DNA of 64,000 nt. It comes from a virus. This document shows, in pieces, positions 6,022 to 57,212 of the stretch (its first letter is position 1; each line of letters begins with the position of its first letter). Below the pieces are notes generated by a model that was not told the origin of the DNA, made no database searches, and saw nothing but the letters and a program-made list of their open reading frames with translations. Made by a program: the position numbers and the translations under genes. Where the stretch lies: UHGV virus genome UHGV-0038496. One strand, written 5' to 3'.

Positions 6022-7009
6022 CCTGGTGTTCAGGGCCGGACGCAACTCCGACCCCCGTTGGTTCCATCCACCGCATCCATGCTCGGCTGCATGTTACCAT
6101 GCAGAGCAGACTATATCACGATCCTGTTTCTCACAGGACCCTTCGCTTTTCGAGCACCATCAGCTTGTGCCCTACTCCCTTTCGGGATAGTCGTTGAACT
6201 ACAATTACCAATCATAATTGTTTGAAATGTAAGTATAAGTTTTCCTTTCCTTGATACTTTTCACTGTACGGTGAGAAACCCCCCACAATCTTGCCACCGC
6301 ACCAACGGATAAGCCTTTTTGTAAATCTTCGCAGATACCAATCACCTTGTGCTCACTTATTCTGTTAGCTGAAGGTATTTCCCTAAAGTGAAACTCCGCA
6401 GAGATATCTGGGTATACTGATCCATTCTTTATACCACTTACAAGGGTTTGATTGACACCGAACATCTGACAGATATCTTTTACCCTTGCACCTTGCTCTA
6501 ATAGCCTGCATATTTCAAGGGCAGTGGCATCATCCAAATACCTGTATTTATTTACATAATCTTTTTTAAGTCCAGTTTCATGGGCGTGGTGTGTGTTTTC
6601 CTCTGGGGTTGTCCACTCAAGGTTCCATGCGGCGTTATTCAACTTATTACCGTCCAAGTGATTTACTTGGGTTTTCACGCTAGGATTATCATTATCAACA
6701 AAAACCTCAGCAACAACTCTGTGAACAAGCACTTGGAACTTTTTGCCGTCCTCACACAGGGAAACCACAGCATAGCCTGTCTTTTTATGCGTAACAGGTT
6801 GAAGGAATTTATTAGAATACAAACTATAAATTCTGCCATCATATGTCACGCAATAGTGTGGGTAACCTAAAAATCCTAAATTCTTCATTTCAAACACTCC
6901 CTACTACAGTTTCGGAAGAATAATTATAGCTGCTGATTATCTGAAAGTCAATCAGATTTTCCAGCAATTAACGAAGTTATTCGACGTGCATTACTGCACG
7001 AAGCCACTA
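6022..7009 (-). mobile_element. group I intron A in terL (contains HNH homing endonuclease gene)
   Basis: Separates two in-frame terL fragments; RNA sense has AACGACUAUCCC and GAUAUAGUCUG (S-element-like) plus CUGCAUGG..ACAUGCAG hairpin; core near-identical to nrdD introns; 5' end approximate. Confidence 0.55.
6205..6897 (-). CDS. HNH homing endonuclease (intron-encoded)
   Basis: 230 aa; HRVVAEVFV...NHLDGNKLNN...NLEW HNH motif; lies inside terL intron A. Confidence 0.7.
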   Translation of the reverse strand: MFEMKNLGFLGYPHYCVTYDGRIYSLYSNKFLQPVTHKKTGYAVVSLCEDGKKFQVLVHRVVAEVFVDNDNPSVKTQVNHLDGNKLNNAAWNLEWTTPEENTHHAHETGLKKDYVNKYRYLDDATALEICRLLEQGARVKDICQMFGVNQTLVSGIKNGSVYPDISAEFHFREIPSANRISEHKVIGICEDLQKGLSVGAVARLWGVSHRTVKSIKERKTYTYISNNYDW

Positions 7010-47122: not shown

Positions 47123-47428
47123 ATGGCACGTACTAAAGTTGAACTGTTTACTTCTCTTCCGGCTGATCCAGCAGAACGTGAACGTCTGCGTAAAACAGTT
47201 GAAGAACTGGTTGATCTCCAGTTGAAAATTAAAGACATGAAGGAAGCAATGAAGGATATCATCAAGGTGGAAAAAGAAGACCACCTGATTTCTCCTAAAT
47301 TCCTGAAGTCACTGGTGGCTACTGAATTTGACCGTCGATTTGAAGCAGAGAAACGTCGTGCAAGACTGGAAGCCGAAGTGGATGCTATGGAAGAGACTGA
47401 TATCCTCTTCAAGCGTTCAGCAGAATAA
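47123..47428 (+). CDS. hypothetical coiled-coil protein
   Basis: Start at ATG after AAAGGGGA; followed by terminator. Confidence 0.45.
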   Translation: MARTKVELFTSLPADPAERERLRKTVEELVDLQLKIKDMKEAMKDIIKVEKEDHLISPKFLKSLVATEFDRRFEAEKRRARLEAEVDAMEETDILFKRSAE

Positions 47429-48081: not shown

Positions 48082-48297
48082 ATGGAGTTCAGTGTGCTCT
48101 GCTCTGAAGGTGAGGTGCATAATTACCCTTTCGAGAACTCTTATCTAGCCAGTATGCCTCTGGACTTCTGGACAACAATAACTGCGGTGCACAATAGAAA
48201 CACCAGACGTGCACTTGCACAGGATCTTGATATGATCACAGACACTGCCTGGCTTGAAGAGTTCACTAAAATACTTCGTGAAAGGGAGGAGTTTTAG
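48082..48297 (+). CDS. hypothetical protein
   Basis: 71 aa, CGGAGG RBS. Confidence 0.45.
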   Translation: MEFSVLCSEGEVHNYPFENSYLASMPLDFWTTITAVHNRNTRRALAQDLDMITDTAWLEEFTKILREREEF

Positions 48298-48504
48298 CGT
48301 ACCCTAAGACTAAAAACAGGCCCCAGATTTCAAATTTAAGGGGCCTAGACGCAATTCTGACGCATTTTTCTCAGGAATGTGAGCAAACGCCTTACCCTAA
48401 CATAAAAACCCTTCACAGGCCTTCTTATAGCGTTTTAGGAGGTCTGTATACTTTCTCGCCAGCGGCGAGCTGTCCAAAATTTTTCCCATCTTACCTTCAC
48501 TGCT

Positions 48505-48570
48505 CAGAAAATGTACTATTTTCTTCGAGGCTCTGCCGAGATACTGCCAGAAAATGTACTATTTTCTTCG
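48505..48570. promoter_or_regulatory. two direct copies of 23-bp operator-like element CAGAAAATGTACTATTTTCTTCG
   Basis: Exact repeats at 48505-48527 and 48548-48570, each with an imperfect palindrome GAAAATGTACTATTTTC; immediately upstream of promoter at 48581. Confidence 0.5.
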
Positions 48571-48580
48571 CGGTTTATGC

Positions 48581-48609
48581 TTGACTCCTTCTCCTGTTTG
48601 TGCTATTAT
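48581..48609 (+). promoter_or_regulatory. sigma70-like promoter
   Basis: TTGACT-17-TATTAT. Confidence 0.5.
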
Positions 48610-48634
48610 CAGTTTGCATTTGAAAGGAGGGGCT

Positions 48635-48787
48635 ATGTACAAGCTGATAATCGTTTTACAATCGGGTGAGCGTATAGAGCTTGGAGATCGCTTCCACACA
48701 ATTGAAGAAGCAGACAGGGAGGGTTATCGTATCCTGCAAGAATCAAGATATGCAGACTATTTTGAAGTAGCAAAAGCAATGCAATAG
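48635..48787 (+). CDS. hypothetical small protein
   Basis: Start at ATG after AAAGGAGGGG (MYKLIIV...). Confidence 0.45.
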   Translation: MYKLIIVLQSGERIELGDRFHTIEEADREGYRILQESRYADYFEVAKAMQ

Positions 48788-48796
48788 GAGGAGCGT

Positions 48797-48937
48797 ATGA
48801 AATCAAGTGAAGTCACAGACGGAATCATCGTCTATTGTCTGGTTACACTGGCAATCCTGTGTGCTGTATTGTGTATAGCTGGAGCATATACAATGCTATC
48901 TTTGCTACTGGAGTATGTTGCAGGGCTATTGTTCTGA
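48797..48937 (+). CDS. hypothetical small membrane protein
   Basis: 46 aa with single hydrophobic helix after AGGAGGAG. Confidence 0.35.
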   Translation: MKSSEVTDGIIVYCLVTLAILCAVLCIAGAYTMLSLLLEYVAGLLF

Positions 48938-49447
48938 CACGTAACTCCTCTGCCCACACATCCACAACAATCGCAAGCTCTGTTGCCTGAAGAGTCAGAC
49001 AAACTTCAGCGATAAGTGCTTTAGCAAGTAGCTTTTAGCTAATTGTGCTGTTCACACATGCCTACCAATTCTGGTAGGTATCTTCCGTATTGCAATTCCT
49101 TTCATCTCCTGCTATAATTTAGATCTTCTCTCTCTTTTCCAGAATACGCTTCTGGGTTTCTCTCTCTTCGGATTGAAGGAGATAGGGGAATATCGACTGA
49201 GTGAACAGTGTGAACATCCGAACGAATGGAGTATCGCACGAGCTTGTCGAGGTTGGAGAGCGGGAGCGGTTATAGCGACCAGCCAACTGCGATGTAATAT
49301 AGGCAGTAAGGCACAATAACGGTAGAGTTTAAGTACCAGCGTTGTTGGGGAGACTAGAACCGGGGGTAGGGGGTTAGGCACATATAGATACTTAGCCTGC
49401 TAATTATTGCATAACTAAGTGATTATAATGGCTTCCTTGCCTGAAAA

Positions 49448-50158
49448 CTACATTCCATAATCCTCATCCTGCTTCTGAGCCATTCCATGATAAACTTCCC
49501 AGTACTTAGAGGCATACACCATATCCCATTCTTCCTGAGTCACCCATGCAATCATCCCACTGAGAATGTCTCTCACCTGTTCCCATTCTTCCCTTTGAGC
49601 AATAGCCTCTTCCTGTGTTTTGAATGCTTTCGCTATACGTTTTGTAACGGTATGACGAGTGACAGCAATACTTGCCCTCCAGTAAGTGTACGGGCCATTA
49701 TGATATTCACTTACCCCACAAATACCAGACTTGTTAGTTTTGTGCATACCACTGTTAGTCATGTTCTGTAGGCGACTAACCAGTCTGAGATTGTCCAGGT
49801 GGTTGTTACCAGGGTCACGATCAATATGGTCAATCTCCATACCTTCCGGGATTGGACCATGATGCATCACCCAGATAATCCTTGCACCCTGGAGCAGAGT
49901 CTGTTTCCCGTCCACCAGCCAGCCTACAACATAGCGACCATCTTTAGCTGCATAGCTACCAGCAACAGCCCCCTTCTTCGCATTAGAAGAACGAGTAAAT
50001 TTATTCCTCAACACACCAAACTCAGCATCATAAACGAAATAGATGCTCCAGTCTGTAGTGTTATACACCTCCTCAAATTTCACCACAACTGTTTTGTTGT
50101 GATTGTTCTTCACAGCGTTATCATAATACGCCTGGGCATCAGCCTTGAACTCAAACAT
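49448..50158 (-). CDS. HNH-AP2 homing endonuclease (free-standing)
   Basis: WVMHHGPIPEGMEIDHIDRDPGNNHLDNLRLV HNH motif and AP2-like segment; isolated in ORF-poor region. Confidence 0.6.
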   Translation of the reverse strand: MFEFKADAQAYYDNAVKNNHNKTVVVKFEEVYNTTDWSIYFVYDAEFGVLRNKFTRSSNAKKGAVAGSYAAKDGRYVVGWLVDGKQTLLQGARIIWVMHHGPIPEGMEIDHIDRDPGNNHLDNLRLVSRLQNMTNSGMHKTNKSGICGVSEYHNGPYTYWRASIAVTRHTVTKRIAKAFKTQEEAIAQREEWEQVRDILSGMIAWVTQEEWDMVYASKYWEVYHGMAQKQDEDYGM

Positions 50159-50199: not shown

Positions 50200-50525
50200 C
50201 AAATGGCCTGAAGAGTCAAATCATTTCCCCTCTTTAAGCCTCTTTGATCCGATTAACATGCTAATTATTCACAGAAAATACCCACACATAGCCTAAGCAC
50301 TTGATTTCATTGTGAAATATGGCCTGAAGAGCACCACATATTTTAACATACCTTTAACATAATACTTCCCCCGTATATACCTCCCCGCCCTGTCCAGGAG
50401 TCCCGTAAATACTGGCTTCCCCACAAATATCAGCACCACAAATATCACAGGCCTGAAGAGGGCCTCATTTTTTTTTATTCGCACCTCCCCCTCCCCCGTA
50501 GGGCGGTACATAGCCTGAAGAGGCA
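50200..50525. repeat. four dispersed copies of (G)GCCTGAAGAG
   Basis: Copies near 50208, 50322, 50449, 50512 in ORF-free DNA. Confidence 0.45.
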
Positions 50526-50921
50526 TTCATACAATCAGGGGCAAATATCCCAGACTTACATTTGAGGTATTAGGCAGGCGAAACGCGACTCCTTCTCATA
50601 ATGCGAATGATTCTCAAATATCACGGCTGCTTTCGTTATTGATAGCCTGGGCCTTGCAGCTATTGGCCTGGTTATTGCACGGTAGTTACTCACAGCGATT
50701 AATAGTTACACACAGAGATTATAGGGTTGACTGTTCACGCCCTCATTGTGTGGGGTTGAATAATAACATGCGTTACAGTTTTCCACAGGAGCATTTAAGT
50801 TGATGATAAGCCTTCTCATTTGGGAATAATTATTACTTCGTATTGTTCATCATACGTAACACCAGTTATACGCACTTATGATCATCTGTACAGTAGTTCC
50901 ACACAAAGGTAGGACACTGGG

Positions 50922-50961
50922 TTATCCACAGGTGGCAGGGTTATCCACAGACTTATCCACA
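50922..50961 (+). promoter_or_regulatory. three tandem DnaA boxes (TTATCCACA)
   Basis: Exact consensus 9-mers at 50922-50930, 50941-50949, 50953-50961, same orientation. Confidence 0.6.
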
Positions 50962-51299
50962 GCTCACGTATGACGCTACGCGGAATAATCACAGGTCAAA
51001 CGACAGGAAACGAAAGGAAACGAAAACAATCGAAAGAAGATTAATTGCGGTTTATTACAGCACGAAAAGATTAATCATTGCAATAGTTAGCCTGCTATTA
51101 ATTATATTTACAGGGGTGACAGTTACGTCATGTTACAGATGACTGGGCATCATATTGCACTGGCACACTACCATACCAGCTATATAACATGCCCCACAGA
51201 TGCATCTTATAACTGGTCTGACCACTTACGCATAAAAAATCGTTGACAAAAAGAGCGAAATTTGTTAGGCATACTTTCCCCATACTTCGGTCATACTCC

Positions 51300-51480
51300 C
51301 CCCACAGTTTACAGTTTGAAAAGCCCATAATCACACCTCAGGCCTCTGGCCTTCGAGGTAACGCAGTTACGAGACACGCATTGAAATCATAACATCCCAT
51401 GACTGTTTACACAGCGTAGCACTGAGGCCCCGCCGATTTTACACATCTGACAGTTTACACGCATGACAGTTTACGCCTTG
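51300..51480. repeat. ACAGTTTAC(A/G)C repeat family
   Basis: At least five copies (about 51308, 51315, 51402, 51449, 51465). Confidence 0.45.
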
Positions 51481-51596
51481 ATTTACAAGGAAATAGTTGC
51501 GACATGTAACTACCGCAAGACGGTATAGTTGCGCCGTGTTATCGTTGCATGTGTAACTTTACCGTGAAGCCATAGGCTGAATGTGTAACATTACTT

Positions 51597-51928
51597 CAGC
51601 GTTATTGTCACAGATCTGATAGTTTGCACTCTACTCTTAACCAGTGTTATAGTAACACCTGTTACTACTACTTTTGACATAATAACGCTGGGAAAACGTA
51701 ACCGTTTTTGATTATTAACATGTAATAACCCAGCGTTACCATAACAATTTTTATTGTTATTGGAGGACATAATAACGCTGAGGATTATTACATGATAATT
51801 TATGATATAATTTCGCTGGCTATGCCAGGTGGACTACGTCCACCCCGTAGGGCGTTATCATAAATTAGCGAGATAATAATGCTGGATAATAACACGGGGG
51901 TGTTATTGTCACTCAGCGTTATTATGTC
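51597..51928. repeat. iteron family GACATAATAACGCTG (direct and inverted copies)
   Basis: Direct copies at 51677, 51767, variant 51872; inverted CAGCGTTATT at about 51597, 51732, 51914. Confidence 0.5.
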
Positions 51929-52651
51929 GCTCCCTCCGGTCGCGCCATGTTATCGTTGCATAATGTGATTATTGCATTCGCAAATTATTATTTATCTTAT
52001 TTTACTTTATGCAATTTATATATTTTCATTGATTGTAATTTTATTTATTTTATATTTTATTGTATCTCATAATCTAATTATATTACTAATATTATACTAT
52101 ATAGATTATTGAGATACAGAATAATCACCGCCTGAAAGTATATTAATCCCACAGCAGAATAGTCACTGCATGAAATAATGTGGGGTGGGATAGTCACACC
52201 TCGGCATGACTGCCTTGCGGAATAATCACCATATTTACCACACCTGCCAGGTTGTTGAGAATATTTCTCATATGTTAGCTATGCACTAATATTGCATAAT
52301 TAAAACATACCTATCAGATGCATCTTATCGTGACGCTACGTGAAAAATAGAATTTTGCGCCTATAGTTATACCCGATTTTTCAAAAAATGGACTTTATAA
52401 CTCACTGTTTTATAAAGATTTATAGTTGTTGACACAGCCATATAAAATGTGCATCAGCCGAAAAGTGTGAGATACTTCACAAAATGCCCTACATTTGACA
52501 GCCGAAAACTGAAAAAACTTAAAAACTATGTATGCAAATACAGCTATTTTACTGTGTGGTTAATTTTTAGGCATTTTATTTTATGCATTGTTTGAATACC
52601 GGATTCACAGCTTGCCCATGAAGCTACGCTGAATAAATCACTATATTACAG

Positions 52652-52683
52652 ACAACAAAAAGGCCGCTTATTTGCGGCCCCTT
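52652..52683 (-). terminator. rho-independent terminator
   Basis: AAGGGGCCGCAAATAAGCGGCCTTTTTG on minus strand after gene ending at 52701. Confidence 0.6.
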
Positions 52684-52700
52684 ATTATTTCGTTGATAAA

Positions 52701-56711: not shown

Positions 56712-56897
56712 TTATTTTGCTTCTCTTTCTCTTCGTGCCAGGTACTTACACCGGGCCAGGGCTAGATCGAAATCTGCGTAAGCGCTATCACAAGTAGAAT
56801 GTGTTAAACCTTTTACCATCACCTGGTAAACTTCCGGCCTAACCTCAAGGATCCAGTAGTTGCCCTCTTCGTAAAGTATTTGAGATTCTTTAATCAT
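56712..56897 (-). CDS. hypothetical protein
   Basis: 61 aa, AAGGAG RBS. Confidence 0.45.
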   Translation of the reverse strand: MIKESQILYEEGNYWILEVRPEVYQVMVKGLTHSTCDSAYADFDLALARCKYLARREREAK

Positions 56898-56945: not shown

Positions 56946-57212
56946 TTATTTATGAGCGCCTTTTACGCCAACCAGGCGATTATATTCTAAGTGCTCAACA
57001 ATTAACCAATCTTTGAAATCGCCGTCACGGTTTAACAGCCGCCAATCTTTGTTGATATTGTATTTATAGCCATAGCCGCAATTTAACTTAGTAGGATGCA
57101 CCGCTTTCGCGTTGTGTGCTTCCAGGATGCTCAGGGCTTTTTTAAGAACGTTTGCGGGAGTATTTTTTTGCATTTTAACGTTCTTGATACCTTTAACGTC
57201 GATCATTTTCAT
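56946..57212 (-). CDS. hypothetical protein
   Basis: Start at ATG (MKMIDVK...) after AAAGGTGA. Confidence 0.4.
   Translation of the reverse strand: MKMIDVKGIKNVKMQKNTPANVLKKALSILEAHNAKAVHPTKLNCGYGYKYNINKDWRLLNRDGDFKDWLIVEHLEYNRLVGVKGAHK

Follow-up and report, generated by a model that had tools for sequence, protein, structure and literature searches.

A conserved operator-like inverted repeat upstream of a small-gene promoter in an uncultured rV5-like phage

The region between positions 48505 and 48609 of the window (the whole stretch of 64,000 nucleotides that we analysed) carries a real and conserved operator-like inverted repeat tied to a real promoter, an arrangement that lies within the known kinds of promoter-upstream sites. 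We put the chance that this palindrome is a protein-binding regulatory site at the promoter at about even. In that case, AGAAAAT-N5-ATTTTCT would be recognised by a dimeric sequence-specific DNA-binding protein, either phage-encoded or of the host, whose contacts would be with both 7-bp arms along a single face of the helix, whatever the sequence of the 5-bp spacer. Bound on the same face about 23 or about 55 bp upstream of the -35 element, the protein would modulate the promoter at 48581-48609 and, through it, a gene for a 50-aa protein and a gene for a small membrane peptide. From such a position, the protein would most likely activate transcription in a class-I-like manner, or act as an architectural or anti-silencing factor, rather than occlude RNA polymerase. 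The second copy of the palindrome found in the window would represent an evolutionarily labile duplication, which may provide cooperativity without being essential.

The phage, the locus and its promoter

The window belongs to an uncultured rV5-like phage related to the Vequintavirinae, with a portal protein 82% identical to that of rV5 and a syntenic capsid module. Neither the phages of GenBank nor complete E. coli genomes gave a match to the locus by megablast or blastn, and the clade is known from metagenomes only. Relatives were recovered from IMG/VR and from gut and wastewater metagenomes by searches with the 71-aa and 50-aa proteins of the locus and by exact-protein look-ups, and the comparison set consists of 20 distinct orthologous upstream regions. 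Over several kb, these relatives match the window at about 82-86% nucleotide identity. Genes in the window are directed leftward between 1 and 12 kb, rightward between 12 and 48.9 kb, and leftward again between 49.1 and 64 kb, which places the locus at the end of the rightward block as its final transcription unit. Upstream of it are found, in order, the genes for a TM2/zinc-ribbon protein, a 101-aa protein (47123-47428), two small ORFs and the 71-aa ORF, which ends at 48297. The features considered below are the following:

47123-47428, plus strand: T4 DsbA homologue of 101 aa (phrog_639), candidate binder, 1.1 kb upstream of the palindromes
48298-48500, plus strand: non-coding block separating the 71-aa gene from the palindromes (213 nt if taken as 48293-48505); the first palindrome always abuts it
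48501-48530, no strand assigned: distal repeat unit CTGCTCAGAAAATGTACTATTTTCTTCGAGG, palindrome centre at 48515, about -101 (+1 taken as 48616)
48544-48573, no strand assigned: promoter-proximal repeat unit CTGC-CAGAAAATGTACTATTTTCTTCGCGG, palindrome centre at 48558, about -58
48581-48609, plus strand: sigma-70-type promoter, -35 TTGACT (48581-48586), 17-bp spacer, -10 TATTAT (48604-48609)
48624-48787, plus strand: ribosome-binding site AAGGAGG (48624-48630) and ORF of 50 aa (48635-48787)
48797-48937, plus strand: ORF for a hydrophobic peptide of 46 aa with a single transmembrane-like segment, kept in some relatives and deleted in others

The initial annotation had proposed a TTGACT-17-TATTAT promoter followed by two very small genes, and both proposals are borne out, the promoter with the addition of an extended -10 TG at 48601-48602 and the first gene with the ribosome-binding site listed above. 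The promoter core is close to consensus, matching it at 10 of 12 positions (five of six in each hexamer) in addition to the TGn element and the 17-bp spacer. Across the orthologous loci, the -35 element is TTGACT in 19 of 20 cases and TTGACC in the remaining one, the extended -10 TG is kept in 19 of 20, the -10 element reads TATTAT, TATTGT or TACTAT, and the ribosome-binding site is conserved, while the sequence of the 17-bp spacer varies freely. Such retention of the -35, TG, -10 and ribosome-binding elements around a variable spacer is the pattern of a functional sigma-70-type promoter, and this conservation of a real promoter next to the palindrome speaks for a protein-binding site. The same promoter also provides an argument against it: TTGACT-17-TGnTATTAT is not the weak core of an activator-dependent promoter, and a near-consensus promoter should not need an activator.

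The 50-aa protein is acidic and shares 84-94% identity over 17 protein clusters; its AF2 model has a beta-beta-alpha-beta-beta topology (pLDDT 71). No homologue was found by tblastn in any GenBank phage, and the protein is specific to this phage clade. One relative (L156, ENA ERZ27298385, positions 1340-1500) has a 5' leader of 120 nt where about 25 nt is usual, owing to an insert of about 95 nt that separates the 50-aa gene from the conserved promoter.

Several other features of the genome deserve mention in their own right. About a dozen early-type promoters, roughly one per small gene, are spread on the minus strand between 55500 and 63900, with an A-rich UP-like tract, the pattern TTGACA-16/17-TAnAnT and a conserved leader GAAAGnAGTA; they resemble the Certrevirus promoter consensus AAAA(N3-4)TGTTGAC...TATAAT (PMC7344957). 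Promoters in the rightward block are instead of the type TTGACA-17-TGnTATACT. On the plus strand at 49090-49156, a promoter-like TTGCAA-17-TGnTATAAT is followed about 20 nt further on by a terminator-like hairpin (49138-49156) with a T-rich tail, an arrangement shared by rV5 that may correspond to a very short RNA or an attenuator where the gene blocks converge. Between 48985 and 50522 (plus strand), GCCTGAAGAG occurs in five exact copies of a single orientation, with 12 matches at one mismatch or fewer against 3.8 expected. Only two of the copies, with starts at 50450 and 50513, are able to fold into small hairpins, whose loop is GAAGA. A promoter-like site on the minus strand at 50219 has its -35 overlapped by one copy, and CCTGAAGAG recurs in the homologous region of rV5. 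Further downstream, 50200-52700 is an ORF-poor region of about 2.5 kb, matched by an unannotated region of about 2.4 kb in rV5, with an A/T-rich stretch (51950-52110) and several inverted repeats (51597-51928). It contains three of the four perfect DnaA boxes TTATCCACA found in the 64 kb, all within 40 bp (50922-50930, 50941-50949 and 50953-50961). At least 13 metagenomic contigs from relatives stop 0.4-6 kb beyond the 50-aa gene, on its downstream side, and the region 50200-52700 may be a replication origin, a hypervariable or terminal region at which assemblies break, or both.

The window also contains seven HNH_3 homing-endonuclease ORFs (for example, 6205-6888, which sits between terminase pieces, and 49448-50158), and the anaerobic ribonucleotide reductase NrdD matches three separate ORFs at about 25-33 kb, a gene that appears to be split by mobile elements. 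In one relative (L141, Logan SRR19918151, positions 1-813), an IS605 OrfB/TnpB (Cas12f-like) gene lies directly upstream of the 71-aa gene, replacing the genes found there in the window. Finally, the early-gene block encodes on the minus strand an 88-aa ORF (56946-57212) with a ParE-like toxin domain (Pfam PF24732, E = 3e-11), adjoining a 61-aa ORF at 56712-56897.

Anatomy, conservation and position of the palindrome

Two exact copies of the 23-bp repeat CAGAAAATGTACTATTTTCTTCG occupy 48505-48527 and 48548-48570, as had originally been noted, with a start-to-start distance of 43 bp and a gap of 20 bp. The repeat grows to 26 nt at 96% identity and, with one indel allowed, to a unit of about 30 nt (CTGC[T]C...TCG[A/C]GG); the 17 nt that follow each unit are unrelated, as they would not be if a long tandem repeat had decayed, and the two sites are thus discrete. 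A third copy is absent from the 64 kb even at three mismatches, and none of 100 dinucleotide shuffles gave two matches of the 23-bp repeat with three mismatches permitted. Each copy had been described as containing a 17-bp imperfect palindrome; a palindrome is indeed present, but it is better defined as a 19-bp sequence, AGAAAAT-GTACT-ATTTTCT, with perfect 7-bp arms around a 5-bp spacer (48506-48524 and 48549-48567). The arm centres are 12 bp, or about one helical turn, apart, which fits a dyad site for a dimeric DNA-binding protein. A single perfect 7-5-7 inverted repeat is not rare, since the window has 15 of them, mostly G+C-rich terminator-like hairpins; what goes beyond chance is the exact duplication together with the conservation in relatives. 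The perfect 7-5-7 dyad, its exact duplication and the failure of shuffled sequences to yield such a pair all argue for a site bound by a protein.

The site is also unique. We found no other match to the palindrome with two or fewer mismatches in the 64-kb window and the 10 kb beyond either end (about 84 kb in all), nor at any of the ~60 other promoter-like sites in the window. A binder would thus have a private target in this promoter, at least within about 60% of the genome, and uniqueness in the genome likewise favours a protein site. A scan of IMG/VR for the exact 19-mer returned two unrelated chance matches only, and one with a degenerate 14-base palindrome pattern gave chance matches among the matches listed. 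The window shows no enrichment of the heptamer AGAAAAT, with 25 copies observed and 18 +/- 4 expected, which counts against recognition by a protein.

At least one intact palindrome is present in 20 of 20 upstream regions. The palindrome orthologous to the distal copy was found in all of them, with arms invariant apart from the last base: the left arm is always AGAAAAT and the right arm is ATTTTCT or, in six of 24 palindrome copies, ATTTTCC. By contrast, the spacer exists in six variants (GTACT, AATCA, AATCT, AACCT, ACACT and ATACT) with only the fourth base, C, constant. Half-sites are thus conserved around a free central spacer, with one variable column out of 14 in the arms and four out of five in the spacer (Fisher p = 0.006, aligned ungapped region), and a contrast this strong between variable centre and conserved flanks occurs in just two of the 217 19-column windows of the aligned region. 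This difference between arms and spacer across the 20 loci supports a protein site, although invariant arms by themselves say little, given the ~82-86% identity of the clade and a neighbouring non-coding block in which 69% of the columns are also invariant.

Copy number is more variable than sequence. Sixteen of the 20 regions have a single palindrome, and two copies are found in the window and L142 with a spacing of 43 bp and in L008 and L158 with a spacing of 37 bp. An assembly artefact is excluded, as the two-copy layout recurs in independent assemblies (L007, L142, L008 and L158/L159). In two-copy genomes of the window type, the spacers agree within a genome (GTACT in both copies of the window, AATCT in both copies of L142), an indication that the copies evolve in concert. 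In one single-copy type, a right flank of the proximal kind follows the distal spacer AATCA, and a second type has the proximal spacer AACCT; single-copy forms look like recombinants between both copies, or they may represent the ancestral state. In five genomes, the proximal position is occupied by a non-palindromic sequence resembling that of rV5. In rV5 itself, a terminator and a related non-coding block are followed by a homologous promoter (TTGACA-17-TGnTAGTAT), whose product is an unannotated hydrophobic peptide of 29 aa, and both the palindrome and the 50-aa gene are missing. Other Vequintavirinae genera (4MG, a Klebsiella phage and W70) could not serve as outgroups because synteny is lost downstream of dsbA.

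This lability is the basis of the main rival explanation, that of a short A/T-rich palindrome, arisen beside the promoter and without a selected function, which slippage or unequal recombination involving its own arms would copy and remove, and whose symmetry would be kept by intrastrand template switching and not by selection. It agrees with a copy number of one or two, with the resemblance of single-copy forms to inter-copy recombinants, with the shared spacers, which point to gene conversion, with the equal invariance of much of the surrounding non-coding DNA, and with the lack of a palindrome at the homologous rV5 promoter. We nevertheless judge it unlikely: all 20 diverged genomes keep at least one intact copy amid frequent indels, the arms exhibit neither drift nor covariation while the spacer occurs in six states, and the nearest copy is confined to two phased positions.

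The position of the palindrome relative to the promoter is constrained in all 20 genomes. The centre of the promoter-nearest palindrome lies 22-23 bp upstream of the start of the -35 hexamer in 12 genomes (23 bp in the window) and 54-56 bp from it in the other eight, which represent three architectures. The two positions differ by 31-33 bp, or about 3.0-3.1 helical turns, and unrelated fillers of 30-35 bp sit between palindrome and promoter in several lineages. This offset of about three turns suggests that one face of the helix is required, as for class-I-type activators, and the existence of two phased positions supports binding by a protein. Two points weigh on the opposite side: distal copies lie 37, 43 or 68 bp from the proximal copy and are not all in phase, and the phasing depends on only two or three independent insertion events.

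These data refine the earlier view of the locus as a pair of repressor or activator binding sites directly upstream of a promoter. The site is conserved, but the pair is not a conserved unit, with 16 of 20 regions having one copy and the spacing being either 43 or 37 bp; likewise, "directly upstream" describes 12 of the 20 genomes and not the rest. Of the two functions proposed, repression does not fit well. The promoter begins 10 bp past the end of the proximal 23-bp copy, which therefore does not overlap the -35, the -10 or the start as an occluding site would, and the sites are wholly upstream of the -35 (about -58 and -101 in the window, about -90 elsewhere). From this position, a binding protein would more likely be an activator or an architectural protein than a classical repressor.

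The location and composition of the arms raise the possibility that no dedicated protein is involved and that they form an UP-element-like or curved-DNA module, in which phased A- and T-tracts would stimulate the promoter via the alpha C-terminal domains or through bending. One arm does hold an A4 tract and the other a T4 tract, 12 bp from centre to centre; the proximal copy (about -67 to -49) overlaps the usual zone of the distal UP subsite, and A-rich upstream tracts are present at the early promoters of this phage, as in Certrevirus (PMC7344957). However, the only or nearest palindrome of eight of the 20 genomes is at about -90, past the normal reach of the alpha C-terminal domain; the stretch from -59 to -38, compared by eye with the UP consensus, is too poor a match to qualify as an UP element; an A-tract function would need neither a strict dyad nor invariant G/C where the arms end; and bends would not add up in phase at the 37-bp spacing of L008 and L158. 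We therefore find this module improbable.

The surrounding non-coding DNA and candidate binding proteins

A non-coding stretch of 337 bp precedes the 50-aa ORF, and the 213-nt block that forms its upstream part is free of indels in 19 of 20 relatives. Its sequence is recognisably akin to that of the rV5 block which links the terminator to the homologous promoter. Two conserved hairpins lie in it, one at 48415-48447 with -15.3 kcal/mol and one at 48455-48469 with -8.6 kcal/mol. Its hairpin of 14 bp relies on G·U pairs, valid on the plus strand only, and the block may be a structured 3'-UTR or a terminator region. No covariation was detected in it, and the changes observed are one-sided ones compatible with G·U pairing. 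Coding functions were considered and rejected: a plus-strand stop-free frame running through the block and the palindrome has no start codon and no codon periodicity at variable sites, and is interrupted by stops or a frameshift in three relatives (L008, L141 and L012), and the start codon of a minus-strand 30-aa ORF (48397-48489) is not conserved.

If the region is transcribed, as the G·U-reliant plus-strand hairpins of the block suggest it may be, read-through transcripts could form AGAAAAU-loop-AUUUUCU hairpins or a duplex of about 19 bp between the two copies, and the palindrome would be an RNA processing or stability signal. A conserved stem with a variable loop is compatible with such a signal, and so is the mutual pairing of the copies, for which we calculated -25.6 kcal/mol (z = -4.6). 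Yet a single palindrome folded as RNA reaches only -2.6 to -3.5 kcal/mol with one G-C pair, far weaker than the two hairpins of the block, the duplex is impossible in the 16 single-copy genomes, compensatory changes in the arms are absent and the sole arm change (T to C) breaks a pair. The palindrome was not reported by a terminator scan and lacks the U-tract and G+C-rich stem of an intrinsic terminator, and Rfam gave no relevant match at E <= 1 between 48000 and 53000. The weak hairpin, the single-copy genomes, the missing compensatory changes and the lack of terminator or Rfam matches favour a site at the DNA level, also in the form of a protein-binding site, and make an RNA element very improbable.

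Another DNA transaction, such as replication initiation at iterons, packaging or site-specific recombination, seems to us a remote possibility, the least probable of the explanations. It would find support in the ORF-poor region with three perfect DnaA boxes located 2.4 kb downstream, in the many metagenomic contigs that break within 0.4-6 kb of the locus, and in the identical spacers within a genome, which recall the crossover regions of recombination sites. Against it, one or two copies do not make an iteron array or an origin of that type, 7-bp arms and a 5-bp spacer are far shorter than those of lox, FRT or dif-type sites, 43 bp is too short for synapsis, no adjoining recombinase or Rep gene was found, and the position of the palindrome tracks the promoter and not the putative origin.

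Returning to a protein-binding site, a candidate for its binder is the 101-aa protein encoded at 47123-47428. It matches phrog_639 at 8e-22 (2e-40 for T4 DsbA against the same PHROG) and is 37% identical to T4 DsbA over 60 aa by BLASTP (E = 3e-4); TPA records name it "Transcriptional regulator DsbA" and other records label it hypothetical. T4 DsbA is a double-stranded-DNA-binding protein of about 10 kDa, an accessory of "late transcription", that recognises specific A/T-rich sites at late promoters with a low, micromolar affinity (PMC2988020). Wherever the flanking sequence of a relative is long enough, the gene for the homologue is found 0.4-1.2 kb upstream of the palindrome. It is nevertheless a lead only, because it is conserved across the Vequintavirinae, including rV5 and genera devoid of the palindrome. 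That the palindrome is the specific target of a phage DsbA-family protein, bound at a phase-constrained position upstream of a sigma-70-type promoter, would be a long shot. In a weaker variant, identical spacers within a genome could be selected for pairing between the copies.

Other candidates fared less well. The 50-aa product co-occurs with the palindrome, both being present in the clade and absent from rV5, but as an autoregulator it was rejected: it is acidic, has no match in Pfam, PHROG, NCBIfam or PDB, and its AF2 model matches beta-grasp folds only non-significantly. No helix-turn-helix, ribbon-helix-helix or AbrB fold was recognised in it. The 71-aa upstream ORF is absent from four palindrome-bearing relatives (L140, L151, L157 and L158), and the HTH_23/CENP-B_N match, the sole helix-turn-helix among the matches listed for the 127 ORFs of the window, is part of the HNH homing endonuclease at 6205-6888. 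An Ogr-like zinc-finger or Mor/C-like protein did not appear among these 127 ORFs, with 25 of the 40 matched Pfam families listed. A host factor is a possible binder as well; the motifs known for Lrp (half-sites), IHF, Fis, ComK, CodY and TrpR do not appear to fit both arms and spacing across the variants, and these comparisons serve as leads only.

Significance and comparison with known systems

If confirmed, the site would mean that a small accessory operon of a common lineage of uncultured rV5-like gut phages has one regulatory input of its own, and would provide a compact, portable and apparently orthogonal 19-bp operator. Its conserved arms and variable spacer make clean mutational tests easy to design. 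Used as bait, the palindrome could also reveal the function of an orphan phage DNA-binding protein, the DsbA homologue for example. Should the latter prove to be the binder, this would be the first sequence-defined conserved site for a widespread and functionally obscure family found in T4-like and rV5-like phages, and DsbA proteins would be true promoter-specific regulators. A new mechanism is not indicated; the palindrome looks like an ordinary binding site and not a new kind of element.

Among known systems, the locus resembles phage and toxin-antitoxin operators in its tandem near-identical 19-bp palindromes, unique in the genome, before a tiny two-gene operon. Unlike in those operators, whose palindromes overlap the -35 or -10, the sites are here clear of the core promoter and, unlike in operators bound by the product of a downstream gene, the first product has an acidic charge and a beta-grasp-like model, and relatives can do without the second gene. 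With the sites of T4 DsbA, the palindrome shares A/T-rich arms and a DsbA homologue encoded nearby in every relative examined; the T4 sites, however, overlap late promoters of the TATAAATA type, whereas the palindrome is upstream of a sigma-70-type promoter.

Activator sites of other phages provide a closer positional parallel. The late promoters activated by P2 Ogr and P4 Delta have a dyad centred near -55 and those activated by Mu Mor and C have one just upstream of the -35; both groups have poor -35 elements and a strict need for their activator. Like them, the palindrome is a short inverted repeat at about -55 to -60 of a promoter for host sigma-70 polymerase, and its binder would presumably be a small phage-encoded dimer. 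It differs from them in the unrelated sequence of its arms and in the near-consensus -35 and extended -10 elements that it accompanies. Class I sites of the CRP type (TGTGA-N6-TCACA) are located at -61.5 and further upstream by integral helical turns. They differ from the palindrome in their half-sites, here AGAAAAT with a 5-bp spacer, and the distal copies of the two-copy genomes are not all in phase, but they share with it a location upstream of the -35, and the two positions of the nearest palindrome, about three helical turns apart, would be expected if its binder had to sit on one face of the helix.
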